NCBI GenBank assembly: GCA_050633305.1
Contig: JBOEGF010000022.1
Span: forward strand, 128,001 to 192,000
Source: Nannocystales bacterium
Lineage (GTDB): Bacteria > Myxococcota_A > Polyangia > Nannocystales > Nannocystaceae
Length of the DNA: 64,000 nucleotides
Direction: 5' to 3'
Shown here: one piece after another, positions 36,184 through 50,719 of the stretch
Numbering within the stretch: position 1 is the stretch's first letter
How the letters are laid out: the number at the start of each line of letters is the position of its first letter
The notes under the pieces: model-generated
What the model was told of the DNA's origin: nothing
Seen by the model: only the letters and a program-made list of their open reading frames with translations
The model's database searches: none
Program-made: the position numbers and the translations under genes

Positions 36184-38025
36184 TCAGATCCCGTGGGCAG
36201 CATAGATGTTGTTGTGCACGCCATCGTTCTGCGACCAGACGACGATGACGTGATCCTCATCCACCATCGCGACATCTGCCTCGAGGACGTATCCGCCTTC
36301 TTCGAATTCAACGAGCCGCGCGGTCCCCCAAGTCTGGCTGGCGGCGTCATACTGGTTGGCCATCAAGTCGTACCGCGCGCCATCCCATTGTCGCCAAACT
36401 ACAACCGCGCTGCCGTCATCGCCGACGGTGATATCTGGCTCAAATGCGTTGCCCGCGTTTTCGGACTCCAACAGCTCGACCGGTCCCCAGACTTGAGTCA
36501 TGGCATCCCACCGTCGGGCGTACATGTTGTCGTTCCCGTCTTCTTGCGTCCAAGCCGCATGGATGTTGCCAAGAGAGTCTGCACCGAGAGCGGGTGTTGA
36601 CGCATCCCCGGGCTCAGTCTCGAAGAACGCGGCGCCTTCCCACTCTCCGAGGTTGTCGTTGTAGCGGTTGTACAAGGCGTCGGAGGAGACGCTGTCCTGT
36701 CGCCAGACTGTCGTTGCGTTGCCGGCCGGGTCAATCAACACATGGACCGCCCGCGCCGGAGTCGCAGCGTTCTCCAGGCTGGTTTCGGGAAACCAACCAT
36801 TCGCAAGCAGGTTGTAGCGTCGCGCGTAGGCGTTGGTGGCCACGGCCTCTCTCCGAGACCAGCCGACGACTCCGAGCCCGGCGTTCACATCGGCGTGCGG
36901 GTACTGTGCGAAGTCGGACGTGCCACCGACCTCCATGGGGGGGCTCCAAGTGCCGACGCTGGCAAGACGGCGGTTCGCGTAGACGCGGAAGCCCGCGGCC
37001 GTATCCACCTCCCACACCGTAAGTGCGTTCCCCTCGGCATCCCCCGCAAGTTCCGCGTGCACAAGGTTGTCGGCCAGGTTCTCGAGGGCCTGGGCCGTAC
37101 CCCAGCTCTGTGTCCCAGCATCGTAGTGACGGGTAAAGAGGCTGCGGACGCCTCCTGAACTCTCGTCCCAGATCGCGTCAGCATCGCCGCTGTCGCTCAT
37201 CACGATTCGGCCGAGGGAGGCTGGGTTGACGGCACTGTTGTCGAGCTCGATTCGCGGACCCCAGGTCTGTGATGCTTCATTGTAGTGGCGCGCAAAGATG
37301 CTCTGCGCCGGAGGAGTGGCCTGCTGCCAAAGCGCGATGGCGTTCCCGCTGGCGTCCATGGCCACGCGAGCGCCCACGGCGGAGCCGGGTTCGACTTCAA
37401 GTTCCATCGTTGGCCCCCACGGCGCCAGCATGCAAGTGTCGAGGCAGCCGTCAGAGTCGTCCGCGTTCTGGCCGTCGTCGCACTCTTCTCCTGTTTGTAC
37501 AAAACTGTCTCCGCAGGACGGTAACGTGCAGGTGTCGGTGCAGTCGTCGGTGTTGTCGCCATTCTGTCCGTCGTCGCATTGCTCACCGGCTTGAACGAAC
37601 ATGTCCCCGCACGCCGGGAGCAGGCAGGCGTCGGTGCAGTCGTCGGTGTTGTCGCCATCCTGACCGTCGTCGCACTCCTCGTCCGCCTGGACGCTGGCAT
37701 CGCCACAGAACTCAGGCGCCCCGGTCGTTTCGGATCCGGTGCCCGATGTGTCGGTGCCGGTCGACTCAACCCCTGACGTTGCGGACCCAGTGTCGCCTCC
37801 CGGTTCGCCTGTCGAGCCTCCCGATTCGCTTGTCGAGCCTTCCGGTGAGCTGTCCGTCGACGTGGTCGCGTCGTACCCTGACACTCCCGCATCGGTTGTG
37901 GTTCCTCCCGTCCCCGCCGGAGAAGACGGAGCTGTCGCGTCTGCGGTGTCAGAGCATGCCGAGCTCAACGTCAACGCCATGCCAAGCGCGGTACGCAACA
38001 ACCCAAGATCTCTCGTTCCAACCAT
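36184..38025 (-). CDS. Lipoprotein with DUF4215/Myxococcus Cys-rich repeats and a C-terminal beta-propeller-like domain
   Basis: Lipobox SAC; S/T/G linker; three CGD...ECDDG...CTDxC units; repeated GNAxxVW...ARRY...TWG blades. Confidence 0.85.
   Translation of the reverse strand: MVGTRDLGLLRTALGMALTLSSACSDTADATAPSSPAGTGGTTTDAGVSGYDATTSTDSSPEGSTSESGGSTGEPGGDTGSATSGVESTGTDTSGTGSETTGAPEFCGDASVQADEECDDGQDGDNTDDCTDACLLPACGDMFVQAGEQCDDGQNGDNTDDCTDTCTLPSCGDSFVQTGEECDDGQNADDSDGCLDTCMLAPWGPTMELEVEPGSAVGARVAMDASGNAIALWQQATPPAQSIFARHYNEASQTWGPRIELDNSAVNPASLGRIVMSDSGDADAIWDESSGGVRSLFTRHYDAGTQSWGTAQALENLADNLVHAELAGDAEGNALTVWEVDTAAGFRVYANRRLASVGTWSPPMEVGGTSDFAQYPHADVNAGLGVVGWSRREAVATNAYARRYNLLANGWFPETSLENAATPARAVHVLIDPAGNATTVWRQDSVSSDALYNRYNDNLGEWEGAAFFETEPGDASTPALGADSLGNIHAAWTQEDGNDNMYARRWDAMTQVWGPVELLESENAGNAFEPDITVGDDGSAVVVWRQWDGARYDLMANQYDAASQTWGTARLVEFEEGGYVLEADVAMVDEDHVIVVWSQNDGVHNNIYAAHGI
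37425..37707 (-). repeat. Three 96-nt (32-aa) Cys-rich tandem repeats
   Basis: CGDASVQADEECDDGQDGDNTDDCTDAC, CGDMFVQAGEQCDDGQNGDNTDDCTDTC, CGDSFVQTGEECDDGQNADDSDGCLDTC. Confidence 0.85.
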
Positions 38026-38213
38026 GCGGGCCTGGTAGACGTCCCACGGCAACCAAGTGATCCGCAGAAACGGGTGTGGCGCTGGCGTGTTCCCAACGGC
38101 GGAGGTCTATGGCGTCCCGCACGGGTCAACCAGGTCCGCATCATTCCGCCGAGCCGCAGGCCTCGCGCAGGTGGTCGTACCGGGTGGGCACGCGTGGTCT
38201 CAGCCCCTAAGCT

Positions 38214-39350
38214 ATGCAGCCCGTGGGGAAGCCCGACACAACGTCACCGCGACGTGGATCGACGCAGAACCGTCGGGCGGCGTTGGTCGGAGTTGCGGTG
38301 GTGCTGGGGTTCATGGGGGGCCCGCGCGGCCAGGCCATCGCGGCCCCGAGCGCCGCGTCCGTCGAACTCGATTGGGTCGCACCCGGCGCGTGCCCAGCCC
38401 GTGCCCGCGTATTGGAGACGATGCGGGCACGGCTTGGAGATGATCCTGCGGTCGATCCCGAGATGCCGATCCGGGCGTGGGTGCGCGTCCAACCCTCGGT
38501 GCGTGGTCTCGACGCACAGCTGCGCGTGACCACCCCTGGGGGGCTCACGGAGCGTAGCCTGAGCGCGGACGACTGCGAGACGATCGTCGACGCGGCGGTG
38601 CTGATCGTGGCGATGTCCGCGGTCGCGATGGCGGAGGTGCCGTCCGTCGCGGAGGACCCTGGGCCGCCGTCCTCCGTCGACGAGACGGCACTCGGTCCTG
38701 CCGCTCTCACCTCTGCAGAGCCCGCCGAAGCACCGCTGGAGCCTGCCGAGGCGCGGCGGGAGCCCGCCGACGTGGCGCGGGAGGCCCCGGGCTCCGAGAA
38801 CCCGGTGGAGCGAGCCCCCAAGACGGCGCCGCCACGAAGCTTTGGCGGACAGGTGCGTGCCGGGGGCGGTGTCGGGCTGGGCGGCATCACCGCGGTCGCG
38901 GGCAACCTCAGCGCCGGGGGAGGGGTGAGCTGGAGCCGGTGGCAGTTCGACGCCGTCGGCCGCTTGTGGTTCTCCCAGCGGCTCGCGTTGCCGCAACAGG
39001 AGGATCTGGGAGCCGATGTTCGGCTCTGGTCGCTCGGACCCCGTGGCGGGCCTGTTCTGCGCTGGAGACGGTTCGAGTTTCCCGTTCAGCTCGGACTGGA
39101 CGTCGGACGTGCGCGGGCCCGGGGGTATGGCCTGAGCACGCCGCGCACGGCGGCCCGGACCTGGCTGAGCGTGGGCGTGTTCCCGGCGGCCGTCTGGAGC
39201 GTGACGCGGCACCTGGGGCTCGGCCTGGGCGCCGAGATGAGCGCGGTCCTGCTTCGCCCGCGATTTGCGATCTCCGACGCAGGGCTGTTGCCCCGTGTCG
39301 GCGGGCTCCTCGGTGGATTCTCTGCGCGAATTCAGGTTCGATTTCCGTGA
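38214..39350 (+). CDS. Secreted hypothetical protein of the myxobacterial ECF-associated type
   Basis: WVAPGACP...ERSLSADDC N-terminal domain, Pro linker, beta-strand-rich C-terminus; start uncertain. Confidence 0.75.
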   Translation: MQPVGKPDTTSPRRGSTQNRRAALVGVAVVLGFMGGPRGQAIAAPSAASVELDWVAPGACPARARVLETMRARLGDDPAVDPEMPIRAWVRVQPSVRGLDAQLRVTTPGGLTERSLSADDCETIVDAAVLIVAMSAVAMAEVPSVAEDPGPPSSVDETALGPAALTSAEPAEAPLEPAEARREPADVAREAPGSENPVERAPKTAPPRSFGGQVRAGGGVGLGGITAVAGNLSAGGGVSWSRWQFDAVGRLWFSQRLALPQQEDLGADVRLWSLGPRGGPVLRWRRFEFPVQLGLDVGRARARGYGLSTPRTAARTWLSVGVFPAAVWSVTRHLGLGLGAEMSAVLLRPRFAISDAGLLPRVGGLLGGFSARIQVRFP

Positions 39351-39390
39351 CGGATTCGGCCCCGAGTCGAGAATAGAGTGCAGACTGCTC

Positions 39391-39930
39391 ATGGCGAGAC
39401 CGCCGGAAGAGCTCGAAACAGCTGAGATCTTTGGCGAACACCACGACTTCGTGTGGCGTTCGCTCGCCCGTCTTGGCGTGCCGCGTGCCGTCATCGACGA
39501 CGCGACCCAAGACGTGTTCATCGTGGTTCACCGCCGCCTCGAGGACTACCGACGCGACATGCCGATGCGCGCATGGCTGTATGGCATCGCTCGGCGGGTC
39601 GCATACCGGTACCGGACGCAGGCTGCGAAGAATCGGCGCGCGTATCCGGCTACGGCGGCCGAGGCCCGCGCCCCCGATGACGCCGTTGCCCTTCAGGAGG
39701 CCGCCGGCATGGTGGCGGCCTTCCTGTCCGAGCTGTCGCCGGCAGCGCGTGAAGTGTTCGTCCTCGCCGAGCTCGAAGGACTCAGCGGACCGGAGATCGC
39801 GGCGGCCCTCGGAGTCAAACTCAATACAGTCTATTCACGACTCCGCCTCGCGCGGCGTCAGTTCGCGCGCGTGGTGAAGCGCTCGCAGGCTCATGCACAA
39901 AGGGAGATGCGTCATGCCTCAACTCGATGA
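39391..39930 (+). CDS. ECF RNA polymerase sigma factor
   Basis: FVWRSLARLG, DDATQDVF, WLYGIARR and NTVYSRLRLAR motifs. Confidence 0.92.
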   Translation: MARPPEELETAEIFGEHHDFVWRSLARLGVPRAVIDDATQDVFIVVHRRLEDYRRDMPMRAWLYGIARRVAYRYRTQAAKNRRAYPATAAEARAPDDAVALQEAAGMVAAFLSELSPAAREVFVLAELEGLSGPEIAAALGVKLNTVYSRLRLARRQFARVVKRSQAHAQREMRHASTR

Positions 39931-40714
39931 GCATGCGCGGGCCCAACTCGAGGCCTACGCAAGCACGGTCCAGCCCTCGGCCGAGCGTCGGCGTCGAAAC
40001 AAAGCGCTCTTGTTGGAGCGCCTCCGGAGTCACGACGACCCGCCCGAAGCGGCGGAGGCTCCCGCAGATCCGGCACCCGTGGCTGTACGTTGGCCGTTGG
40101 TTGCTCTGGCTGCGGCGGCTCTCGTCGCGCTCGCACTGGGCGTTGCGAGCCGCGACCCAGCACATGCTGAACCCTCGACGGCGGCATCTCAGGCTGACGC
40201 CACGCTCGAGGAGGAGGCCGCGCGACCCGCTGCGCAACGGCGATCGCCGCCGACGGAACCCGGCTCGCGTGGAACGAGTGCTGGTGCCACGGCGCAAGCG
40301 GATCCGCGCTCGGATGGGCCAGATGCCGACACGACCCCGCAACCGCAGCCTTCCCCACCATCCCGCGTCGAGAGGCTGCGACCCCCCGCGCCGCCGCGTC
40401 GTGATGCCGCGACAAGCCCCAACCGGCTTGCGGCCGAAGTCGCGTTGATCACCCTGGCTCGAACTCACCTCGCCGAGCGAAAGAACGCCTCGGCCCTGTC
40501 ATCGTTCCAACGCCACGCTCGAGAGTTTCCGAACGGAGCGCTGGCGGAGGAGCGGTCGGCGTGGGTGGCGATTCTTCAATGTCGTCTGGGTCGAGATGGT
40601 GGCCGACAGTCCGCCGCCGCGTTTCTCGTTGCCCATCCCAACTCGCCGCATGTTCGCCGCGTTCGCAAGACTTGCTCAACTACGGTGACGGACGCACCGC
40701 CGACCGAAGAATAG
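39914..40714 (+). CDS. Putative anti-sigma factor with TM and C-terminal TPR-like domain
   Basis: Overlaps the sigma gene; TM segment; LAAEVALI...HAREFPNGALAEER...FLVAHPNSPH motif. Confidence 0.75.
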   Translation: MPQLDEHARAQLEAYASTVQPSAERRRRNKALLLERLRSHDDPPEAAEAPADPAPVAVRWPLVALAAAALVALALGVASRDPAHAEPSTAASQADATLEEEAARPAAQRRSPPTEPGSRGTSAGATAQADPRSDGPDADTTPQPQPSPPSRVERLRPPAPPRRDAATSPNRLAAEVALITLARTHLAERKNASALSSFQRHAREFPNGALAEERSAWVAILQCRLGRDGGRQSAAAFLVAHPNSPHVRRVRKTCSTTVTDAPPTEE

Positions 40715-40723
40715 AGGGGCACG

Positions 40724-41314
40724 ATGACGGTTTCATCCCACCCACTGAAGAGCCTGTTCCTGGTGTCCGCCCTGTTCGGCGTCGCGTGCGACACCCCGCC
40801 GGGCGACGTCGGAGAGTCCGCCAACGACACCGCAGCGTCGGAGGGCATGCCGACCACGGCAGGCTCCGAGGGCAGTTCGTCCGGGGGCAACGGCATGCCG
40901 ACCACGGCCGACCCCGGAGGTTCCAGCACCTCGGGGACTGGCGACGCGTCGGTCACCGACGGTATGCCGACGACGGCCGATCCTGGAACCTCGGGCACCT
41001 CCGCGACGAGCGGAGGGACGGACTCCGTAGGCATGCCCACGACGGCGACGACCGACGTGGGGAGCACAGGAGAGGACGACTCCGACTCCGGGGAAAGCCC
41101 GGTCGACGACTGCTCCGAGTGCGGTCCTGGGGATGTCTGCGTGCGCCACGTGGCGCTCACCGCCGAGACGTTCTGCGTTCCGATGCCCGACGCCTGCGGG
41201 GACGGCCTCGACTGCGAGTGCGGTGCGGCGACGTTGTGCAACGAGCTGTACGACACATGCATCGAGCCGACCGAACCGAATCAGCTCGACTGCGAGTGCT
41301 CGGTCTGTGCTTGA
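40724..41314 (+). CDS. Lipoprotein with GMPTTA repeats and Cys-rich C-terminus
   Basis: GAGGGG RBS; lipobox VAC; four GMPTTA units; Cys-dense tail. Confidence 0.8.
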   Translation: MTVSSHPLKSLFLVSALFGVACDTPPGDVGESANDTAASEGMPTTAGSEGSSSGGNGMPTTADPGGSSTSGTGDASVTDGMPTTADPGTSGTSATSGGTDSVGMPTTATTDVGSTGEDDSDSGESPVDDCSECGPGDVCVRHVALTAETFCVPMPDACGDGLDCECGAATLCNELYDTCIEPTEPNQLDCECSVCA

Positions 41315-41476
41315 GGCTCGACCGACGAGCGAGCCCTGACAAGGTCCGCTCCGTTGGTCGGACGCGGTGTCCTTCGCGGATACAGCGGACTCTCGGGATG
41401 TCGCTCCGCGGTGGACCTCCGAGCTTCGGGAACAGCGTCTGGCGCCATGAAATGCCGAACTGATAGGCTCCGATCA

Positions 41477-42496
41477 ATGGCGCCGGCTCGCGGGACTTGG
41501 ATCCTACTCTTGGCCGCGTCGGTTGCATCCTGCGTGAAGCCAGCCGGGCCGACGGGGCCGGTCGAGGAGCAAGCCCGAATTGCGCCACAGGTGCAGGCTC
41601 CCGGTGAGGCGACTTCGCCTGACGTCGAGGAGGTCGAAGAGGCCGACGTGTCCAGGAGGGCACGGCACCCAGAGCCCCAGGGGTGGGAAGTCCGACCGAC
41701 GCGGGCGCGGCCGTGTTGGGTGCACGACACTGCGAAGCAGTTTGAGATGGTCTGCGACCACGTCGTCAATCCGGACCTCGACCTCGAGCGGAGTTGGCTC
41801 GAAGCGATCGTGGACACATCCGGGTTTGAGGTTCCCGCGGACTCGCCCGGGTATCCGAAGGACGTACGGCCAGGGACGGAGTTGTCCCTGATCACCGCGC
41901 GCGGTGTCGTATACCGCACGGTCAAGGGGGTCTCGGGCCATGAGTCGATTCGCAGCGATGCACACGGAGGCGGTCGGGTGGGATTGCTCTACACGATCCG
42001 ATTGGACGGTCCCTCCGTTGGCCCAGCGTTTGCGGCCGGCCAGGTGGAACGCGGTGCGGTGCTGTCCAGAGTCCAGATGCAACGGGTAGGCCCGACGCCG
42101 CTTCGTGCAATGCTCGAACGTCGGATGGCCCTCGCTGAGGGGACGGTCCCGAATCATGGGACGCGACAGATGGACGTGCGCTCTTGGACGGATCCTCTCG
42201 ACCCGTCCATGGGCAAGTTTGTCGCGATCGTTGACGAGCTTCAGCAGGGCCCCGACCTCTTCGATGTCTTCGGCGGGCTTGGCTACGTGGTCGACTCGAA
42301 CGCTGAGGTCGCGTGGATCGTTCCGCCCGAATCGGGGCTGGAAGGTGTCTCCATCGAGCACGTCGTCGATCTCGACGGTGACCACAGCAACGAGCTCATC
42401 GTTCGGATGGAAACCGAGTACACCGAGACGTTGTTGCTCGTTCGCCGCGGACTCCACGGGTTCGAGCTTCAGGAGATCTATTCGTTCGGCTGCTAA
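41477..42496 (+). CDS. Hypothetical lipoprotein with a C-terminal DLDGD (FG-GAP-like) motif
   Basis: Lipobox ASC; VDLDGDHSNELIV; start uncertain. Confidence 0.7.
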   Translation: MAPARGTWILLLAASVASCVKPAGPTGPVEEQARIAPQVQAPGEATSPDVEEVEEADVSRRARHPEPQGWEVRPTRARPCWVHDTAKQFEMVCDHVVNPDLDLERSWLEAIVDTSGFEVPADSPGYPKDVRPGTELSLITARGVVYRTVKGVSGHESIRSDAHGGGRVGLLYTIRLDGPSVGPAFAAGQVERGAVLSRVQMQRVGPTPLRAMLERRMALAEGTVPNHGTRQMDVRSWTDPLDPSMGKFVAIVDELQQGPDLFDVFGGLGYVVDSNAEVAWIVPPESGLEGVSIEHVVDLDGDHSNELIVRMETEYTETLLLVRRGLHGFELQEIYSFGC

Positions 42497-42744
42497 CGAC
42501 GCTGCGCCGACCTTGCACCGCGGCCGAACTCATCGTGCCGAGGAACCGGCCTGGCCGACCTTGTCTCGGGCGGAGGCACGTGGCCTCTGCCCTCTGGCTG
42601 TTGAGCCGTTTTGCGCCACCGGACAAGAATGGCCCGAGGCTCCGCTGTACGGACCCAGTCCTGTATCGAATCGTCGCACCGGCGATGGCGGTTCGCGAAT
42701 AGACGTGCTTGCGGCGCATCATCTCGTATGTTATCTGCTGCAAC

Positions 42745-42879
42745 ATGGAAAAGGCACGCAGTGACAAAGCAGAGGGGTCGGTCAAGCTGGACGTGAAGCG
42801 CGTCCGCAACGAAAATCGCGATGGACAGGTGAAAGACCTCGCCCATGAGTTTCGGCCTCCGACCTCGGACGCCAAATAG
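42745..42879 (+). CDS. 44-aa small ORF, candidate RiPP precursor peptide
   Basis: Translated by hand as MEKARSDKAEGSVKLDVKRVRNENRDGQVKDLAHEFRPPTSDAK*; TG-n-TATCTG-N7-ATG leaderless promoter geometry; lies upstream of the ANL-family enzyme. Confidence 0.6.
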   Translation: MEKARSDKAEGSVKLDVKRVRNENRDGQVKDLAHEFRPPTSDAK

Positions 42880-43019
42880 GCCGAACGTCCGAGCAACCTG
42901 ATGTCGGATTTGAGCGACCAAACATTGCGCGTAGCCCGCTCGGTGCTTGGTCGCTTTTCTGTTGGTGCGGGGAGGGATTTGGTGAGAGCCGGATTCAGAT
43001 GTCGTGAGGCGGAACCGGG

Positions 43020-44858
43020 ATGCATATACTTGAGATAAGGCCCGAAAGCGCGATTCCCAAGCACCACCAAACTCTGATTTTGGTCCGTCTCTCCGAGGGC
43101 GGGCGGAGCATTTTCTCATGGTCCACCGAAGGTGTCGGGGCCGTGGAAGACCCGGAGTTCTCCGCGGGAATGGTCCAGCGTGGCTATGCGCGTCAAGAAC
43201 GGAGATGTTCTGGCCTGGATAGGGCAGATCGAACTGCCAAGTCTCGCGGTGTCGACATTACGTGCGGTTTCGTCGAGACCTCACTCGAGCAGTTGTCTCA
43301 ACTCTTGGCTGACGTCCAAGATGTCCTCTTGGAGCAAAGGCGAGGAGGGTTGTTGACGTTGCTTTCCGTCGCGAGCGACGAATTCGCTGAAAATGCCTCC
43401 ATTCGCGAGTATGCGAGCCGTCGGCATGCTGTGGCCTGCCAGGATGGGGGCGCGCGTTGGCCAGAGATCCCGGGTTGCGAACACCACTTTTGGCATAAGC
43501 AAGGTGAAACTATCCATGTGTTTCATCGCTGCGTGCATCAGATGTTTACATTCTTGCAGCCGAGCGATGCGGAACTTCCCGAAACGCTGCGGGCGTGTGC
43601 TGAACTCGTTGGGCTGGACCACCCCGAGAACCTGACGACGACTCGCGTTCAGGAGAGTCTTCAGCGAAGCTTGCCCAAGCTCTCCGAGGCGGAGCGGGCC
43701 GGTCGACTCTCCGGGCAAGATGTGTGGACGTCCAAGGAGTGGATGGACAATTTTTGGAAAACTGTGCAGCTCGAAGAGCGGCCGCTTGACGAGCTTCGGG
43801 CCGACCCCGCATATAACATTGCAACGTCGAGCGGAAGCACGGGCGAGCAGAAGATTGTGCTGCAGGAAGAGGAGCTGCTCGACGAACGCCGAGATGCCGA
43901 GAACGCGGTCTGGGCGTATTCCGAGCCGTGGTTCGTCGCGATTGTGAATCGACCCACCAATCTCTTCGCGGTGAAGGACGAGTTCGATGAGTTTCGCTTC
44001 GAGGAAACCGACGCGGACCTGAAGGTCACGCCAGGCGCGAACCCGACGACCGCGACCTCAGACGCGTGGCGCCGAGTCGCGCACAGTATTAGACGGTCGA
44101 ATCCGACTGTGCTTGCTGGCGATGCCCAGTATCTGGTCTCGTTGATGCCCTATCTCGCCAGGGACGAGCTTCCGAGCCTTAGGCATGTTGTCGTGAGTAA
44201 CCATGTCTCCTGGTCCTTTCAGCGGCGGATGCTCGAGGCGCACTTCGGTCTGCCGGTTCAGATTCTCTACCATTCGGGCGAACTGTCCATGATGGCTACA
44301 TCGTGTCGACATCAGAGCTGGCATTTGCTTGAAACGTTCGCCTGCTACGAGGTCTTCCACCAGTCCGAGGCGAGGAACGATGAGACGGGGCTGCTGTTGG
44401 CGACCACGATGGACTCGAAGGTTCGGCCGCTCGTGCGCTATCCGCTTGGAGATATTGGCAGGATTGACGAATCTCTGTGCCCTTGCGGTGACCGGAGGCG
44501 TCGCGTCGTTCTTGAAGGAAGAACGACGTACACGTTCCCCGCGAGGTCTGGAGGCTGGGTCACTCTCAAGGCGGTTGACGAGTCGCTGTCGCGGGTTCAA
44601 GGCCTGTCGCACCTGGCGCTGTCCTTTCGAGAGGACCAGATCGTTCTTGAAGCCGTGGCCCTTTGTGGCCAAGAGCCCGTCGTGCCGGTCGACCAACTGA
44701 AAGCGCTTACAGGGTATCCAGTTCACGTCAACAGCTCCTCGAACCTGAAACTGTTGACCCCGGGCGGAAAACTGTCTGTCTTTGAATCCTCTACGACGCT
44801 TACGGAGGAGCACTTCATCAAGAGCACCGACCCGGTACGCTTCGTGAGGCAGTCGTAG
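43020..44858 (+). CDS. Phenylacetate-CoA ligase (PaaK/CapK)-like adenylate-forming enzyme with an N-terminal extension of about 200 aa
   Basis: TSSGSTG P-loop, YHSGE, PLVRYPLGD, CPCG and EGR motifs; atypical codon usage. Confidence 0.82.
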   Translation: MHILEIRPESAIPKHHQTLILVRLSEGGRSIFSWSTEGVGAVEDPEFSAGMVQRGYARQERRCSGLDRADRTAKSRGVDITCGFVETSLEQLSQLLADVQDVLLEQRRGGLLTLLSVASDEFAENASIREYASRRHAVACQDGGARWPEIPGCEHHFWHKQGETIHVFHRCVHQMFTFLQPSDAELPETLRACAELVGLDHPENLTTTRVQESLQRSLPKLSEAERAGRLSGQDVWTSKEWMDNFWKTVQLEERPLDELRADPAYNIATSSGSTGEQKIVLQEEELLDERRDAENAVWAYSEPWFVAIVNRPTNLFAVKDEFDEFRFEETDADLKVTPGANPTTATSDAWRRVAHSIRRSNPTVLAGDAQYLVSLMPYLARDELPSLRHVVVSNHVSWSFQRRMLEAHFGLPVQILYHSGELSMMATSCRHQSWHLLETFACYEVFHQSEARNDETGLLLATTMDSKVRPLVRYPLGDIGRIDESLCPCGDRRRRVVLEGRTTYTFPARSGGWVTLKAVDESLSRVQGLSHLALSFREDQIVLEAVALCGQEPVVPVDQLKALTGYPVHVNSSSNLKLLTPGGKLSVFESSTTLTEEHFIKSTDPVRFVRQS

Positions 44859-45162
44859 ACGGTGCCGAGGTTCCAAGACGACGCGAGGTCCTTGCTTGAG
44901 GCGATGCCGCCGAGCACCGCGAGGGCGGTCGTCCGCGTGTTCGACACCGCCGTCGGCGTTCGTGGGACACGAGGGGCGTCCCAGTTCGATGAAACGGCCA
45001 TTGCGGCGCGTCCAAGCGGCGTCTTCGTGCCTTGGCCTGGACTCTGCCGCCACCCCGCTGAGCATTCCACCGAGGTGGGGGCGGCCCCTGAGCCAAGGGC
45101 GAGGTTCCCCCTTGCGTCATGTTCCGGGCGGCCGGGTCGAGCCCCGGCTCAGCGACGGGCCG

Positions 45163-46869
45163 TCAATCCTCGAGGTCGCCGAGCAAACGCTCGAAGACCT
45201 CGAACGGTTGGGCACCCGAGACCCGGTAGCCGTCGACGAAGAACGTCGGACTTCCGCGACCTCCAGCCGTCTCACATCGCGCCTGTTCGTCTTCGAGTAC
45301 GGCGTGGATGTCGTCGCTGTCGAGTTCGGCAACGAAGGCTTTGGCGTCGATTTCGAGCTTGTGGCCCATGGTGATGAAGTCCTCCGTGGTCATCGGGCCC
45401 GGGTGCATGTGCAGGTAGTCGGATGCGGGCCAGTACACGCCGTGCTTGCGCGCGACGATCAGCGCACGGGATTTTCGTTCGGCGCCCTCGTGCATGGCCA
45501 GCGGGTATTGGAGATGCGCGACGCGGACCCTGCCTTCGAACGTGTCCAGGAGCTGGTCGAGCGTCGCGGCGGAGGCTCGGGCGTACGGACAGTCGGGGTC
45601 CACACAGGCCACGACGTCGGTCGAGGCATCGGTCTCACCGCGCCAGTCGAGGCCCTGTGTCTTGGGGGCGGAGGGCTCTCGCTGAAGGATGCCAGCGACG
45701 ATCTGGGCGGGGCTCAGCTCCGCATCACTCAAAGGTCGCAACGTGAACTCCATCGTTCCTTCAAAGCCCGGGGCGTATTCGGTGTCGGTGTCGGGAAACA
45801 GTCCGTCAGCGAGACACGCGGTCGTCCGAGCGTCGGGAGCGTCTGGGTCATGGGTCACCGAGGTCAGCCGACTGTGTCCTTGTTCGTCACGCACGAACTC
45901 GGCTTCGAGGATGAACCGGGTGTCGCGGGCGGCATCGTGGTCGGCGGCGCAGGCCTGGGCGAGCAGGCGGCTGAGCGCCGCGAGTTCGCGGATCTCCTCG
46001 GCGCTACTGTCCCGCCCGACGCCACGGGTCTCAATCTGCGCGCCGTACTGCGGCGCCTCGGCGGAGTCATCGCGAACGCCCGAGTTGCTCGTGGTGCGCA
46101 GGGCTGCCCCCGCGGGCGCAGGGCCCTTGGACGACTCTGAGGTCGGGGCAGCGGATGCGCCAGGCTCAGGTGCGCTCGAGCCCGTCGCGGCGGCGGCTGT
46201 ACTCGCTGCGGGTTCCCGGTCGGTCGCAGCATAGGTTGTGACGCCGAGGGCGGTGGCGGAGGTGAGGGTGATCAGGGTTGCGATTGTTTTCATGGTCCAC
46301 GGCTGCGCTTGTGCGGTCGGAGGGATGCTGCCCGAGACGCCTGGGACCGCTGCCAGGGCTCCGAGCCAGTGTTTGCGCTCCTCGAAGCGGCGGTCGAGCC
46401 GTTCGCGAAGCCGCTTGAGCCCCTCCCGAACCCGCCAGCTGGCGGTGTTGGTCGGGCATCCCTGGTGTTGACCAATCTCGCGGGCGGTGAGCCCGTCCTC
46501 GAACCTCAGACGCAGCGCCTCTTCATAAGCCGCAGGCAGCGCCGACCACTCCTCGTGGAGTGCGTCGAGCAGCTGGCTGCGTGCCACCTGTTCTTCGGGG
46601 GTTGGGGGCAGATCCGGCTCGGAACTGGCCCAGTGCTCCCGTTGTTGTCGTCTCCGCGCACCACGATGCTTCGAGATGGCACGGTTTCGCATCGCCTGAC
46701 GCAGCCAACCCAGCGGATTGGAGACGGGGCGCGTATTGTGGATGGCGGCGAGGAGCGTGTCCTGAACGAGGTCCGCTCCATCGGCGCCGACGAGGTGTCG
46801 ACCCAGCGACACGAGTGCCGCGTAGTGCCTCTCGGCGGCGATGGAAACGGCATTGGACGAACCAGGCAT
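45163..46869 (-). CDS. ECF sigma factor fused to a TM segment and a C-terminal DsbA/thioredoxin-like domain
   Basis: DLVQDT, GWLRQAMRN and LRFEDGLTAREIG sigma regions; TM segment; DCPYA, YPLAMH and GSPTFFVDG...GAQPFE DsbA-like motifs. Confidence 0.85.
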   Translation of the reverse strand: MPGSSNAVSIAAERHYAALVSLGRHLVGADGADLVQDTLLAAIHNTRPVSNPLGWLRQAMRNRAISKHRGARRRQQREHWASSEPDLPPTPEEQVARSQLLDALHEEWSALPAAYEEALRLRFEDGLTAREIGQHQGCPTNTASWRVREGLKRLRERLDRRFEERKHWLGALAAVPGVSGSIPPTAQAQPWTMKTIATLITLTSATALGVTTYAATDREPAASTAAAATGSSAPEPGASAAPTSESSKGPAPAGAALRTTSNSGVRDDSAEAPQYGAQIETRGVGRDSSAEEIRELAALSRLLAQACAADHDAARDTRFILEAEFVRDEQGHSRLTSVTHDPDAPDARTTACLADGLFPDTDTEYAPGFEGTMEFTLRPLSDAELSPAQIVAGILQREPSAPKTQGLDWRGETDASTDVVACVDPDCPYARASAATLDQLLDTFEGRVRVAHLQYPLAMHEGAERKSRALIVARKHGVYWPASDYLHMHPGPMTTEDFITMGHKLEIDAKAFVAELDSDDIHAVLEDEQARCETAGGRGSPTFFVDGYRVSGAQPFEVFERLLGDLED

Positions 46870-46943
46870 GTGACCTCGAGACGCCACCGACCCACTGATC
46901 CGTGGTTGGAGGCTGTTTTTTCTGCCCGGATCCCCTGGGAGGC

Positions 46944-48278
46944 TCAGGCCGTGGCGCGCGGGGGCGGGACCCGGTCGCGTCCGCCCAAGACCGTACGCAG
47001 CATTGGCGCGACGATCTCGCGGCGGGCATCGGCGACCGCAGCGGTGAGCTCGGCTTGCGAGAGTCGCCCATAGTGGCGCCAGTGTGGATGCTCCGGCGTG
47101 GGTTCGAAGCGCGCTGTGGGGAGGTCGGCGAAGGCTTGGCGAAGCGCGCCAGCAACCTCGGCTCCGCCGGCTTCGAGTGCCCACTTCACGGTGCGCCAAG
47201 CCAACGCCGCGTGCTCGGCCTCGTCCTTGGCGATTCCCCCCAACACCTCTTGGGTGTGGGGATCGAGGGCCATGGCCGCACCGCGTTCGGCCACCAACGC
47301 GGCGGTTGTCTCACCGACGCAGCCCTCGAGGAAGGCATCGACCGCGACCTGCACCAGGGTGGGGGAGCGGGGCGTGGCGGCGGGTAGGGGACCGGGTCCT
47401 TGGATCGCGGAGGTGAAACGACTGGCCATGCCGTAGCAAGCCTGAGCGTGTCGCACCTCATCCGCGGCGGCACGCAACGTGTCCTCGAGCAGGGCGGGCG
47501 GCGCACCGACGGCCATCAGCTCGATCACGACGCGACTGAACGCAGCCACCGAGGCGTGCTCCGCGGCGGCATCGGCCAGCCACGCGTCGCACAGCGCGTC
47601 TGCGATTCCGGCTGCTGCAGGGCAGGCGAGGTCGGCCCAGTCGGTCCGTCGAACCGCGGGGGCGGCCAGCACTTCGGTGCCCTCCACCAGAGGGCGGCCG
47701 GAGCAGTACTCGAACCAGTGGTAGCAGCACACATTCTCCTCGCCGGCTTCGCGGGCGAGCTCGGTCCCGTGTTGGTTGAGCGAGCCCTGCATGGAATTCT
47801 TGTCGGACAGCCCCTTGTACTTGCCCGGGTTCGAGGTGACCGGGCTGGGCGTGTGTGCGCCGATGACTCGGGTGGGGCAGCCCAACTCCAGCTGCGGCTC
47901 GCCGACCTTCGGTGCGATCGCGAGCGCGGCATCCATCGCACCGCACCAGTTGCCGGAGACGCAGGGGTCTTCTTCGGGGTTGTAGCCGTCGATGAAAGGC
48001 GGGTCGCCCTCGATCGGCATCATCCGAAGCTCGTCGGGGTCTGTGGGCAAGGGAGGCGGCGGCGGAGCTGCGTTGACACGCGGTCCGGGGCCGGGCTTGG
48101 CCTGCGTTTCGTCTCCCTTGGCCGCTTTCGCGCTGGGCGGATTCGTTCGGACGGCCTTGGCCTTGTCCTTCGCCCCGTTGGCGGAGGGCTGGGGCGCAGG
48201 ATCACCGCACCCCCCCAGAAGCACGGGAATGCACGCGAGGAGGCTCAGGCGGCGACGGAGCGCGGACGTGTCACGCAT
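46944..48278 (-). CDS. Ferritin-like domain lipoprotein (myxobacterial)
   Basis: CCY...GRP, EHASVAAF, DEVRHA, EGCVGET and DEAEHA di-iron ExxH motifs; lipobox LGGC. Confidence 0.85.
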   Translation of the reverse strand: MRDTSALRRRLSLLACIPVLLGGCGDPAPQPSANGAKDKAKAVRTNPPSAKAAKGDETQAKPGPGPRVNAAPPPPPLPTDPDELRMMPIEGDPPFIDGYNPEEDPCVSGNWCGAMDAALAIAPKVGEPQLELGCPTRVIGAHTPSPVTSNPGKYKGLSDKNSMQGSLNQHGTELAREAGEENVCCYHWFEYCSGRPLVEGTEVLAAPAVRRTDWADLACPAAAGIADALCDAWLADAAAEHASVAAFSRVVIELMAVGAPPALLEDTLRAAADEVRHAQACYGMASRFTSAIQGPGPLPAATPRSPTLVQVAVDAFLEGCVGETTAALVAERGAAMALDPHTQEVLGGIAKDEAEHAALAWRTVKWALEAGGAEVAGALRQAFADLPTARFEPTPEHPHWRHYGRLSQAELTAAVADARREIVAPMLRTVLGGRDRVPPPRATA

Positions 48279-48355
48279 CCGGGCGACGGTATCAGGGACA
48301 GCGCCGGTCGACACGGGTGCAAGCCCGGCATTCGGGCAGGGTATGCTCGGAGGCG

Positions 48356-49561
48356 ATGGATTGGCGTAGGGTCGGGAAGCGGGTGTGGGTGCTCGGTGGA
48401 GGGCTTTGGGCGCTGACCGGGTGTCCCAGCGGGGATGCGGGCGTTGGCGTGACCAGTACGGCGTCGGAGGGGATGGCCCCGGGATCGACCGGTGCGGCAG
48501 AGAGCTCGACCGGCGCGGACACGCTCGCAGACGGCAGCGGCGGCGGCACCACCGCGGCACCCACGGTCGAGGTCGGGTGCGGCGAGATGCCAGCGGCGGC
48601 GCTGGAGGCGGAGTACGCCCACGCGTTCGAGGTGGACCCGCCGGACGCCTCGGGAGATTGGAGCGTCGAAGGCCTGCCCGAGGGGATGTCGTTCTCCCCG
48701 TTTGGCGGGGAGTTGTCGGGCATCCCCACGGAGGAGGGGACCTTTGAGCTCACGGTGTCGGTGGACGGCTCGGCGGGCATGGGCGAGGCGACGTGCATGC
48801 TGGACGTCGGCCCCGCGCTGTCGGCCGATCTCTCGGTCCTGGCGCGTCCGTGTTTGGGGCCCGGCGACAGCCTCACCGACATCCTGGTCGGCGGTGACGG
48901 GTCCGAGCTCACCTGCACGACGCCTGCGGGGAACGGTTCGGGCGCTCGACCCGAAGGGGTGACGGTCAACGAAGACACCTGCGCGATCGAGGGCGAGCCA
49001 ACGCCCGACGAGTGGGGGACGTGGGTGTGGATCACCCAAGTGCGCCAGGCGGGCGCCAGGGTGCATGTGCCGTTTTGCATCACCCAAGACACGCCGCCCG
49101 CGGACAGCTTCGACGTCACGATGACCCGCAGAGGCGATACGGATGTCTTGCTCGAGCCCTTGGTCGGAACGTTCTCAGCCGCGGAACCCCTTGCGTTCGG
49201 AGGGGACGGCAACCCGAGGTTCGAGGTCACGGGTGGATGCGGGGGTGGAGCCTGCTTCTACGGCTTCAGCTTCAACGCAGGCGCGTCTCCGTTCGGTGGC
49301 GACTGCGGCCAGGACTCGTGCTTGGGTCTGGCGCCCAGCGCCATCGTGGTCGACAAGACGGACGGGCCGATCGGCTTCTCTCACGAGCTGTATGCGTTCG
49401 GGCCCCCCGTCGACGACAACTTCGTCGCCCGGCCATTCGTCATGCCGTGGGAGCTGACCTACTGCATCGCCGACAACGACACGGAGTGCGACGGCAGCGA
49501 GGCCATCCTCGCCAACGCCGGTGCCCATGTGCACGTCTCGTTGCTGATGCTCCCCGAGTAG
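48356..49561 (+). CDS. Lipoprotein with a putative Ig (He_PIG-like) domain and Cys-rich C-terminus
   Basis: Lipobox LTGC; GLPEGMSF...GELSGIPTEEGTF motif. Confidence 0.78.
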   Translation: MDWRRVGKRVWVLGGGLWALTGCPSGDAGVGVTSTASEGMAPGSTGAAESSTGADTLADGSGGGTTAAPTVEVGCGEMPAAALEAEYAHAFEVDPPDASGDWSVEGLPEGMSFSPFGGELSGIPTEEGTFELTVSVDGSAGMGEATCMLDVGPALSADLSVLARPCLGPGDSLTDILVGGDGSELTCTTPAGNGSGARPEGVTVNEDTCAIEGEPTPDEWGTWVWITQVRQAGARVHVPFCITQDTPPADSFDVTMTRRGDTDVLLEPLVGTFSAAEPLAFGGDGNPRFEVTGGCGGGACFYGFSFNAGASPFGGDCGQDSCLGLAPSAIVVDKTDGPIGFSHELYAFGPPVDDNFVARPFVMPWELTYCIADNDTECDGSEAILANAGAHVHVSLLMLPE

Positions 49562-49580
49562 GGCGGGGCCGGAGTCGCTG

Positions 49581-49618
49581 AGGACTGGCTCAGGACTGGC
49601 TCAGGACTGGCTCAGGAC
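49581..49618. repeat. 11-bp tandem repeat (AGGACTGGCTC) x3 plus a partial copy, spanning the bioB stop codon
   Basis: Direct reading: aggactggctc aggactggctc aggactggctc aggac. Confidence 0.9.
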
Positions 49619-50719
49619 CGGGAGCCGGGCGGGCTTTCGCTTCAGCTCGGGTCGGACATCTCCGCAGCGGTGCGGGATGAGGCCCAGCTCGTGAAGCATC
49701 TCGAGGTCGTCGTCCACCGTCCGGTTGGCGGTGGTGAGGAAGTCGCCCACCATCATGCCCGAGGCGCCCGCGCTGAACATCATCGGCAGCAGCTGTCCCA
49801 GGTGGGTGCGGCCCGCTGCGATGAAGATGTTTTGTCGCGGCAAGAACAGCCGGTATGCCGCGATGATTCGGAGCATCTCCATCGGCTCCAGGGGATCGGT
49901 GGGCGGCAGTTTGGTGCCCTCGATGCTCACCAGAAAGTTCATCGGCACCTCGTCCACGTCGAGTTCGCGCAGCGACTCCGCCAGCTCGACCCGGTCGCTG
50001 GGGGCCTCGCCCATGCCGAAGATGCCGCCCACGCAGGTGCGCAAGCCCTTGGCCTTGGCCATGCGGATCGTGTCCATCCGCTCGTCGTATGTGTGGGTGC
50101 TGACGACCTTGGAAAAGTAGCTCCGGCCGGTCTCGAGGTTGTGGTTGAGCTCGGTGAGTCCGGCCTCGACCATGCGGTCCATCGCGTCGTCGGTCAGGAA
50201 TCCGACGGAGGCGTGGGCTTCGGTGTGCCCCGCGTCGCGCACGGCCTTGATACCGGCGACGACGTGATCGAGCGCCTTGGTGTCATGTTCGAGCCCTCGG
50301 GTCGCGGTGACCAAGCCCAGCGCGCTGGCGTTTCGGCCCGCCGCGCGCTCGCTGTGGTCGACGATCTCCTCGACCGGGGTGAACTTCTTGGCCTGAACGT
50401 GCGTGCTGAAGTGCCGGGACTGGGCGCAGAATCCACAGTCCTCGGGGCACCCCCCCTCCTTGGCGTTGACGATCGAGCACAGGTGCACAGAGTTGCCGAA
50501 CCGGGCCCTGCGGACCGTGTCGGCAGCCGCCATCAGCGACCACACGTCTACATCTGGGCCTAGATAGGCGAGCAGCGTCTCGCTATCGAGGGCCTCGAGG
50601 TCGCCCCGAACGATGCGTTCGGCGATGACGGACGGCGCGAGGACCGTGGGCTCGCTCGTGGCTTCGGTGGACGCCTCGGTGGAGGGCCGTGCGTCGGTGT
50701 CGTGAGACTCCAGCGACAT
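49601..50719 (-). CDS. bioB: Biotin synthase (radical SAM)
   Basis: CPEDCGFCAQS, NHNLET, GGIFGMGE, VPMNFL and GDFLTT motifs. Confidence 0.88.
   Translation of the reverse strand: MSLESHDTDARPSTEASTEATSEPTVLAPSVIAERIVRGDLEALDSETLLAYLGPDVDVWSLMAAADTVRRARFGNSVHLCSIVNAKEGGCPEDCGFCAQSRHFSTHVQAKKFTPVEEIVDHSERAAGRNASALGLVTATRGLEHDTKALDHVVAGIKAVRDAGHTEAHASVGFLTDDAMDRMVEAGLTELNHNLETGRSYFSKVVSTHTYDERMDTIRMAKAKGLRTCVGGIFGMGEAPSDRVELAESLRELDVDEVPMNFLVSIEGTKLPPTDPLEPMEMLRIIAAYRLFLPRQNIFIAAGRTHLGQLLPMMFSAGASGMMVGDFLTTANRTVDDDLEMLHELGLIPHRCGDVRPELKRKPARLPVLSQS

Follow-up and report, generated by a model that had tools for sequence, protein, structure and literature searches.

The discovery of peptides made by the ribosome and modified after translation (RiPPs) depends on knowing the enzyme families that act on precursor peptides. 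Among these, the ATP-grasp ligases of the graspetides, which belong to a superfamily other than ANL, activate side-chain carboxylates under the guidance of a leader and close lactams or lactones. We know of no ANL/PaaK-type enzyme that activates the carboxylate of a ribosomal peptide, and to our knowledge a PaaK-type enzyme is not a component of lanthipeptide systems; an ANL enzyme reportedly acts in the attachment of the indolic acid of nosiheptide, where it activates the free acid. Here we describe a two-gene locus from a Nannocystales bacterium (assembly GCA_050633305.1, contig JBOEGF010000022.1, positions 128,001–192,000; this whole stretch of 64,000 nucleotides is hereafter the window), in which a small open reading frame (ORF) for a 44-amino-acid (aa) peptide precedes an ORF for a 612-aa protein with a PaaK-type adenylating domain. 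The pair probably constitutes a new kind of peptide natural-product module, and we lean, with some reserve, towards reading it as a RiPP-type module composed of a precursor peptide and a leader-dependent carboxylate-activating ligase. If so, a leader-guided ANL/PaaK-type ligase would provide a new ATP-dependent route for the activation or acylation of ribosomal peptides; its catalytic logic would resemble that of known RiPP ligases, the novelty lying in the PaaK-branch ANL domain, whose solved members otherwise act on free acids.

The benzoxazole-pathway enzymes NatL2/BomJ, AjiA1, and ClxA, the last being the best match of the window enzyme by both sequence and fold, share with it the two-domain PaaK-type ANL fold, the P-loop, the hinge GR, the C-terminal Lys, and a C...CxCG cluster. 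NatL2, AjiA1, and ClxA are stand-alone proteins of ~400–436 aa whose substrates are free aminohydroxybenzoic acids and which lack a peptide partner, whereas the window enzyme, at 18–21% identity to them in fold alignments, is extended by ~204 residues at the N-terminus and has a peptide gene linked to it. NatL2 makes an ester from the acyl-adenylate via a hydroxyl, independently of coenzyme A (CoA), and contains a structural Zn (PMC7204872). The nearest relatives by sequence are fusions of a Memo domain to a PaaK-like domain (800–960 aa), which have the same LigB/Memo fold at the N-terminus; in the window family, by contrast, the Memo domain is cut to ~150 residues and lacks conserved metal ligands, and 26 columns of a segment resembling a RiPP recognition element (RRE) are missing. 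In the 2025 RRE-Finder update, Memo-like proteins figure as RRE fusions ‘unprecedented in RiPPs’, and a model RREFam044 ‘Memo_RRE’ is listed in supplementary Table S1 (PMC12710340). The published Memo-RRE proteins are possibly the Memo-PaaK fusions. The lasso cyclase, which is mentioned in the same paper (PMC12710340), is asparagine-synthetase-like and macrolactam-forming; it is alike in the proposed logic of leader-guided, ATP-dependent carboxylate activation and belongs to another superfamily.

A further comparison is with the class I lanthipeptide systems. Peptides related to that of the window in Minicystis rosea DSM 24000 occur with a full LanB at two loci and with a LanC-like protein at two loci, have cores with Ser/Thr and one Cys, and are encoded by genes followed by a stem-loop; unlike these, the window has neither LanB nor LanC beside the pair, and its core has no Cys. 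Of the general features of a RiPP locus, the window shows a short precursor-type peptide whose leader part is conserved and whose core part varies within the family, encoded next to a candidate modifying enzyme. A literature search returned no paper linking PaaK-type enzymes (phenylacetate-CoA ligase) with lanthipeptides or RiPP precursors, nothing on this enzyme family beyond the Memo-RRE remark, and nothing on Minicystis rosea lanthipeptides with such an enzyme.

A family of precursor-type peptides encoded next to the enzyme

The small ORF (42745–42879, + strand; ATG at 42745, TAG at 42877–42879) encodes 44 residues before the stop (MEKARSDKAEGSVKLDVKRVRNENRDGQVKDLAHEFRPPTSDAK), and the 612-aa ORF (43020–44858) follows on the same strand after 140 nucleotides (nt); both are present as described in an initial annotation of this DNA. 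That annotation took the small ORF to be absent from the ORF track; the ORF is real, but the ORF lister does contain it, as a 56-aa frame from an upstream TTG at 42709. An identical 44-aa product is recorded for the window’s own contig in a protein collection. Its size alone says nothing, since the GC-rich DNA here abounds in such ORFs: 115 with 30 aa or more overlap positions 38000–50000. Its GC content by codon position is 0.67/0.38/0.69, as against 0.63/0.45/0.69 in the enzyme gene.

Indications that this ORF is a gene come from Minicystis rosea DSM 24000, which has an ortholog of the window enzyme at 37% identity. A 61-aa ORF with a good Shine-Dalgarno sequence (Mr1) lies 297 nt upstream of this ortholog, and its first 30 residues resemble residues 5–34 of the window peptide. 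The Smith-Waterman score of the two peptides is 48, compared to 21 ± 4 for shuffled sequences, and was reached by 3 of 5000 and 0 of 5000 shuffles; their frames are also the best of 36 intergenic frame pairs (53 vs 42 for the next), and both ORFs show a coding-like GC distribution by codon position. Including the BLASTP result given below, the sequence evidence for this resemblance appears mixed but positive on balance. A profile built from the two peptides found two further Minicystis peptides, of 52 aa (E = 0.009) and 53 aa (E = 0.002), both of which have KKGLRLEVRRIRTQIREGVI[DE]EYGQ followed by short Cys-containing tails; there is one Cys in each of the three Minicystis cores. A profile of all four, the window peptide included, recovers the window ORF with E = 1.6e-20 and, in the same genome, no other credible match. 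In the class sample, genome G681 gives only a row at chance level, from which nothing is concluded. Nine other matches to the peptide profile in the 400 genomes of the class are weak: seven lie in open frames of at least 280 aa, and the two in short frames, which were inspected, are antisense to larger ORFs.

The family comprises four members, the window peptide and the three of Minicystis rosea, with the common motif L-x-[LV]-[DE]-V-[KR]-R-[IV]-R-x3-R-x-G-x-[VI]-x-[DE] at leader residues ~10–34 and with M1, S6, L15, V17, R19, R21, R25, and G27 (window numbering) invariant in all four. Their N-termini are alike, and the sequences become wholly different after residue ~34. Judged from this alignment, the conserved N-terminal and variable C-terminal parts present the leader/core pattern of RiPP precursors, and the small ORF reads as a genuine member of a gene family; this supports the precursor-type character that the initial annotation had assigned to it. 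In the window peptide, we place the border between leader and core where the family alignment stops, giving a conserved N-terminal part of residues 1–34 (42745–42846, + strand) and a variable C-terminal part, EFRPPTSDAK, of residues 35–44 (42847–42876, + strand). No Pfam or NCBIfam model matches the leader. An S-D-[AL] sequence occurs in three of the four cores (TSDAK in the window, ASDAV, and LSDLC) and, speculatively, may be a modification site. A LysW-type carrier protein or a C-terminal tag was considered and ruled out, as the C-termini are not conserved.

The three Minicystis peptides come from distinct loci. The first (L011) has the gene order LanC-like, peptide, enzyme, LanB. At the second (L043), the 52-aa gene lies ~360 nt downstream of an enzyme paralog (Mr2; E = 7.6e-193; phenylacetate-CoA ligase by annotation) and ~110 nt upstream of a second full LanB gene. 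At the third, the neighbor of the 53-aa gene is a LanC-like gene, and the ORFs scanned in the 20-kb stretch include neither a LanB nor a PaaK-like gene. The LanBs directly downstream in both enzyme loci are full versions (Pfam E = 2.6e-77 and 7e-84) that are 42% identical to each other and, therefore, point to the duplication of peptide, enzyme, and LanB as one unit. The Minicystis relatives of the pair thus sit in a lanthipeptide setting (LanB at both enzyme loci, LanC at one). Across the four enzyme loci with both flanks readable, a peptide gene is found on the same strand within 420 nt of the enzyme gene at three (the window, L011, and L043). The initial annotation had called for a search for small ORFs adjoining the homologs, and this linkage recurs accordingly, but fails at the fourth locus (that of genome G600, below). 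The same annotation’s picture of a self-standing new RiPP class does not extend to the family as a whole, given the lanthipeptide enzymes that accompany the relatives and the G600 ortholog without a peptide.

A stem-loop follows the peptide gene in the window (42912–42965, + strand; inverted repeat I3), with arms at 42913–42931 and 42937–42955 and then UUUUCUGUU. Placed between the two genes, it looks like a terminator or an attenuator. It is modest in strength (centroid structure; z = –1.7 for a 99-nt stretch, with 9 of 200 shuffles folding as well), while those after the Minicystis peptide genes are much stronger (z = –6.4, –4.5, and –6.2; 0 of 200 shuffles each). A stem-loop is present after all three of the enzyme-linked peptide genes that were folded (window, Mr1, and Mr2). 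The upstream regions of the four peptide genes have nothing in common except in two near-duplicate Minicystis copies. No RNA dataset is listed as containing the locus; one DNA metagenome run, possibly the source sample, contains 0.46 of the sequence words, and its contigs leave 42776–42963 uncovered.

The PaaK-type adenylating domain

The protein recorded for the enzyme gene is of 441 aa only, with a GTG start at residue 172 that leaves out window positions 43020–43535. The true start is the ATG at 43020 (+ strand), giving 612 aa, because homologs conserve the longer N-terminus and it folds with confidence. This N-terminus is conserved in P0001 (610 aa; 79% identity), P0003, P0006, P0007, P0008, and the Minicystis ortholog, and has a pLDDT of ~75–90 in the AlphaFold model of the enzyme (pLDDT 68 overall; low at 205–298, 438–477, and 578–612).

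Residues 205–612 with the stop codon (43632–44858, + strand) form an adenylating domain of the PaaK family within the ANL superfamily, as supported by motifs, Foldseek, and profile searches against the PDB. All of the ANL motifs named in the initial annotation are present, namely TSSGSTG (269–275; 43824–43844), YHSGE (417–421), PLVRYPLGD (470–478), CPCG (487–490), and EGR (499–501), to which can be added a GGKL motif (GGK at 582–584) with the catalytic-type lysine K584 (44769–44771) and a Cys cluster formed by C429 and C487-x-C489. These segments correspond to the core motifs of ANL enzymes (P-loop [ST][ST]G[ST][ST]G, aromatic-x-x-G-E, (R)Y-x-x-GD, hinge GR, and C-terminal catalytic Lys), with TSSGSTG being the P-loop, EGR containing the hinge GR, and K584 the catalytic-type Lys. 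Nearly all the residues of the named motifs are invariant in the family alignments: S270, G272, Y417, H418, E421, R473, Y474, G477, D478, G500, R501, G583, and K584 are so in nine family sequences, as are C429 and C487-x-C489, and the window enzyme retains every family-invariant residue. Given that the PaaK-type motif residues are intact and invariant, the enzyme looks competent for adenylation.

The structural comparisons agree with the assignment of the C-terminal part to this fold. The best PDB match by sequence is ClxA (9s3l; E = 4e-13), which also heads the Foldseek matches of the full model (E = 1.9e-16; template modeling score by target 0.58), followed by BT_0428, PaaK1 (2y27), NatL2, and AjiA1, all at probability 1.00; the model has the two-subdomain ANL fold as in PaaK, along with the core motifs. 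The family profile likewise matches 9s3l (E = 1.6e-19) and 4r1l (E = 3.9e-18, covering chain residues 86–351), and sequence searches put residues ~340–530 in the PaaK branch of the superfamily. None of the curated PaaK, F390, DVU_1553, and AMP-binding models reaches its cut-off with the enzyme, the scores being 16 bits for Pfam AMP-binding (cut-off 29.9), 48.7 bits for NCBIfam DVU1553_fam_AMP (E = 5.6e-13; cut-off 300), 34.1 for BagE_FevW (cut-off 800), and 16 for PaaK (cut-off 700); the enzyme therefore represents a distant, unnamed branch outside those families.

The N-terminal region: a reduced LigB/Memo-like domain and a candidate leader-binding module

About 204 residues precede the PaaK-type part, in agreement with the ~200 extra residues noted at the outset; an RRE-like segment was then ascribed to the protein, and the main part of these residues turns out instead to be a reduced α/β domain of the LigB/Memo type (residues 1–149; 43020–43466, + strand). 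In a model of residues 1–262 (pLDDT 76.7, predicted template modeling score 0.71), the top 10 matches in VIA-align all belong to the LigB/Memo superfamily, viz., LigB-type (class III extradiol) dioxygenases, TK2203, MEMO1, and YgiD, with Z of 8.7–5.6, 129–146 residues aligned, and a root mean square deviation of 3.4–4.1 over the model range 1–162; Foldseek on the same model finds the same families (best E = 4e-3). The fold is that of LigB/Memo with about half of the target domain covered, and at a Z near 8 that is common among best matches; the sequence kinship with the Memo fusions agrees with the assignment. A search of ESM Atlas with residues 1–235 was uninformative (best score 0.78). The invariant columns of residues 1–149 are M1, G55, A73, D79, L103, and Q106, with no His among them; Pfam Memo and LigB find no match in the window protein, and the His/Asp/Glu residues that presumably bind metal in Memo are not conserved. 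Residues 1–149 are, on this pattern of conservation, probably a non-catalytic relic.

In the Mr2 paralog, the family hidden Markov model finds no N-terminal domain in any frame: its match to the family (L043, 7633–9734) starts at profile position 132. Faint BLASTP similarity is seen in a 222-aa ORF that overlaps it in a different frame, so that the gene may be split or frameshifted, or may truly have lost the domain.

Between this domain and the N-terminal helices of the PaaK-type part lies a β-β-β-helix module (residues 153–202; 43476–43625, + strand), a candidate for peptide binding, delineated from the models and hhalign, with strands at 156–161, 164–169, and 174–179, a helix at 186–197, and conserved C153 and H169-x-C171. 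It is kept in all the peptide-linked enzymes, including Mr2, which is without the N-terminal domain. The RRE winged helix comprises three β-strands followed by three helices. The family aligns with the Memo-PaaK fusions from C153 to the C-terminus in hhalign (E = 9.9e-80), and, by this alignment, the module is homologous to the PqqD/RRE-like segment of these fusions, of which it is a remnant, its RRE nature being a lead only. The fusion profile itself matches the lasso RRE TfuB1 (6jx3_B) marginally (E = 0.12 over chain residues 11–96 of 99), as does the NCBIfam model NF033530 (lasso_PqqD_Strm) one of the 14 fusions (E = 0.16), with Pfam PqqD matching the segment in none of the 14. Neither Foldseek against the PDB nor VIA-align gave a PqqD/RRE chain among the matches shown for the 1–262 model, in which residues 149–208 were barely tested; taken separately, residues 149–208 matched only small β3-α proteins at Z ~4 (phage P7, an AP2 domain, and an AcrIF protein).

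A prediction of the complex of enzyme and peptide, made with our own alignments as input, scored 0.53 (runs of 0.58, 0.53, and 0.07, with a contact agreement between runs of at least 44% and a partner pLDDT of at least 40), compared to 0.00 for the best of three controls. Among solved complexes, 116 of 157 attain the mark used for such scores, as do 2 of 215 mismatched pairs, but just 18 of the 157 solved complexes and both of the passing mismatches do so at a score of 0.60 or less. This prediction weakly supports binding of the peptide by the enzyme.

Phyletic distribution and relationships

The enzyme is very rare. No ortholog was found in six genomes of the same genus or in 72 genomes of the order; among 401 genomes of the phylum and 400 of the class, the only other full-length copy is in genome G600, and Minicystis rosea DSM 24000 supplied the one locus recovered when 185,579 species were scanned. 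A metagenome scan recovered one 5'-truncated enzyme fragment with nothing informative downstream. A Memo domain is detected by Pfam ahead of the PaaK-like part in 17 of the 28 best relatives scanned (680–960 aa). In a maximum-likelihood tree, 11 short enzymes form a 100/100 clade nested among the Memo-PaaK fusions, and the peptide-linked enzymes occupy both its deepest branch (Mr2) and its crown (Mr1 and the window).

The G600 ortholog (617 aa; E = 1.1e-165) has purD on one side and the gene for a 1230-aa repeat protein on the other. At this locus (L047, G600:C1, 5796–11594), the ortholog and the 1230-aa protein, which has internal repeats and no Pfam match, appear to be inserted between purH and purD, with the stop of the enzyme gene overlapping the start of purD.

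One of the nearest relatives, a 965-aa Memo-PaaK fusion of genome G506 (L048, G506:C1, 6308–12901, – strand), is encoded directly upstream of a nitroreductase-family gene, an 832-aa YcaO, and a phosphodiesterase; by its gene content, this is a RiPP setting of the thiazole/oxazole-modified microcin (TOMM)-like kind for the nearest relatives. PaaK-like relatives further removed (E ~1e-31 against the family profile) adjoin a class-V aminotransferase in all four loci seen (L023, L027, L028, and L029), with an S9 prolyl oligopeptidase too at L027 and L028 (genomes G458 and G457) and a P450 at L028. These associations suggest work on small molecules in the distant Polyangiaceae PaaK-like branches.

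In the window, the pair occupies a low-GC stretch (42600–44900, without strand; GC 0.57–0.60 vs 0.64–0.75 on either side) that contains these two genes only and is probably acquired DNA. In DNA comparisons within the genus, four of five genomes share long matches with the window solely to the right of ~45180.

Proposed function and alternative explanations

We propose that the 44-aa product would be a precursor with a conserved leader (~10–34) and the short variable core EFRPPTSDAK, and that the 612-aa protein would be a leader-dependent tailoring enzyme descended from Memo-RRE-PaaK fusions. The leader may be bound via the β3/helix remnant at 153–202, perhaps by strand 174–179 and helix 186–197, which would be the cleft-forming parts of an RRE. 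By analogy to NatL2, the PaaK-type domain would use ATP to form an acyl-adenylate, from which an O or N nucleophile would take up the acyl group directly, CoA playing no part. The activated carboxylate could be the core’s own Asp42, Glu35, or C-terminus, resulting in a lactone or lactam; alternatively, a free acid could be hung on the peptide as an ester or amide of the core. The window copy would work without LanB or LanC. A more far-reaching version would see an unrecognized class of RiPP maturases in those PaaK-type ANL enzymes that contain an RRE of their own, complete in the Memo-RRE-PaaK fusions and reduced in the window family. These would adenylate the peptide’s own carboxylate, on an Asp/Glu side chain or at the C-terminus, for ring closure to a lactone or lactam; the window island would be the minimal, LanB-independent form and define a new RiPP class, and in Minicystis this step would be joined to lanthionine chemistry. 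We regard this version as unlikely, though it has a real chance. If the proposal is right, the Memo-RRE fusions, called unprecedented by the authors of RRE-Finder, would gain a function, and the mining of myxobacterial genomes would gain a handle. For a test, the window is the simplest case, as a single peptide and a single enzyme are involved; Minicystis rosea DSM 24000, which is cultured and has a complete genome, offers the fuller clusters.

Several observations weigh against the proposed precursor-ligase module. On the side of the peptide, the window ORF has no Shine-Dalgarno sequence before it. The TG-n-hexamer-N7-start geometry claimed for it earlier can be read in the DNA as TGtTATCTG-N7-ATG, but its hexamer agrees with TATAAT at three of six positions, and a consensus scan near 42745 finds no promoter. 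The core has Thr and Ser and lacks Cys. BLASTP yields no alignment between the window and Minicystis peptides, their similarity resting on the Smith-Waterman/shuffle test and the profile, and the family is tiny, with no credible further member in 400 genomes of the class and no other family peptide among 5.8 billion protein clusters. No family peptide was found near the G600 ortholog, nor did the peptide profile find one in the class sample. With respect to the enzyme, its substrate is not readable from the sequence, and the stem branch of the window and P0001 is long (1.02 changes per column) with short tips, which could reflect a changed or relaxed function. The RRE-like segment claimed at first holds in so far as residues 153–202 are homologous to the marginally PqqD-like segment of the fusions, but 26 alignment columns, two helices’ worth, are missing after the third strand, and neither Pfam on the window protein nor the family profile against the PDB gives a PqqD/RRE match. 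As to the setting, no LanB, LanC, protease, or exporter lies beside the pair, the absence of the last two having been flagged as a caveat from the start and now confirmed, and the sole LanB/LanC cluster of the genome is on contig C10, with a LanB barely related to those of Minicystis (E = 0.01).

These points bear differently on the alternatives. It is unlikely, yet of the alternatives to the module it survives best, that the pair is an orphan remnant, i.e., a piece of a lanthipeptide-type cluster (peptide, PaaK-type enzyme, LanB, and LanC) transferred horizontally without LanB and LanC, in which both genes would still be whole but the enzyme would need a LanB-made intermediate, and no finished product would be formed in this organism. 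Such a history would fit a low-GC two-gene island that is not found in the six same-genus genomes and has a dispersed repeat at its right edge, as well as the LanB at both Minicystis enzyme loci, the core without Cys, the long window/P0001 stem branch, and the want of a Shine-Dalgarno sequence. Against it, both ORFs are intact and keep all the family-invariant residues of enzyme and leader. P0001, a copy of different origin, shares 79% identity along its full length, and the gene has hence been kept since the divergence of the two; further, 7 of the 12 differences that separate the enzyme gene from that of a near-identical strain are synonymous, a weak indication from one metagenome run of low depth that is possibly the source sample.

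Less likely again is a free-acid ligase, i.e., an enzyme that would activate a small aromatic or other acid in the manner of PaaK, NatL2, ClxA, and BagE and never touch the peptide, whose real partners would be LanB and LanC. The window island argues against this, as it holds just the peptide and enzyme genes and no LanB or LanC, and so does the recurrence of the linkage in a duplicated, diverged cassette; the extra module 153–202, conserved and homologous to a probable RRE, points the same way, with weak support from the complex prediction (0.53 vs 0.00 for the best control). In favor of a free-acid substrate are the small acids on which all the solved relatives act (PMC7204872), the G600 ortholog without a peptide gene, the class-V aminotransferases adjoining the distant Polyangiaceae relatives in four of four loci, and the annotation of the Minicystis copy as phenylacetate-CoA ligase. 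Finally, that the window ORF yields no peptide, being a decayed frame or one that arose by chance, with the enzyme gene alone of consequence, is very improbable: the missing Shine-Dalgarno sequence and consensus promoter, the BLASTP result, and the abundance of frames of this length in GC-rich DNA would allow it, but the shuffle and frame controls, the four-peptide profile match (E = 1.6e-20 with the window’s own peptide included, and nothing else credible in the genome), a codon-position GC like that of the enzyme gene, the retention of eight of eight family-invariant positions, and a stem-loop before the enzyme gene as in the relatives all favor a real gene.

Genomic neighborhood of the pair

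The window lies on contig C22 of an 11-Mb genome and has a GC of 0.64–0.75, of the myxobacterial type. The matches to PF04738 and PF05147 in this genome are confined to contig C10, where a class I lanthipeptide cluster (L022, 1762–10892) encodes a LanC-like protein, a LanB, a 431-aa protein without a family match, a C39-peptidase ABC transporter, and HlyD. The LanB of C10 was considered as a specific in-trans partner of the window peptide and set aside, being barely related to the Minicystis LanBs, with the peptide profile finding no such leader on other contigs. A defense system was likewise rejected, as PADLOC matches neither member of the pair nor the gene upstream.

Just 3' of the enzyme gene, at the right edge of the low-GC island, is a dispersed repeat (44969–45097). 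One piece of ~77 nt (45013–45090) recurs at three other sites of the same genome with 81–87% identity and in at least 10 copies in the same-genus genome G001, and a second piece of ~40 nt (44969–45010) is also repeated; the element looks, from its sequence, like a miniature inverted-repeat transposable element (MITE) or one of the repetitive extragenic palindromic (REP) type. A target-site duplication was sought in the sequences bracketing the pair and discarded, there being just a 12-nt near-repeat (42709–42720 and 45001–45012; 11 of 12 identical) that is probably due to chance.

The genes around the pair give no functional hint. On one side are an extracytoplasmic function (ECF) sigma factor with its probable partner, a Cys-rich secreted protein, and a 380-aa ORF that has no family match and, by eye, a lipoprotein-like N-terminus. 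On the other side, a 678-aa ORF (45163–47199, – strand) encodes an unusual sigma-70/DsbA-like fusion, with sigma-70 regions 2 and 4 at ~123–266 and a thioredoxin/DsbA-like domain at 519–673, which has a counterpart of 72% DNA identity in the same-genus genome G002.

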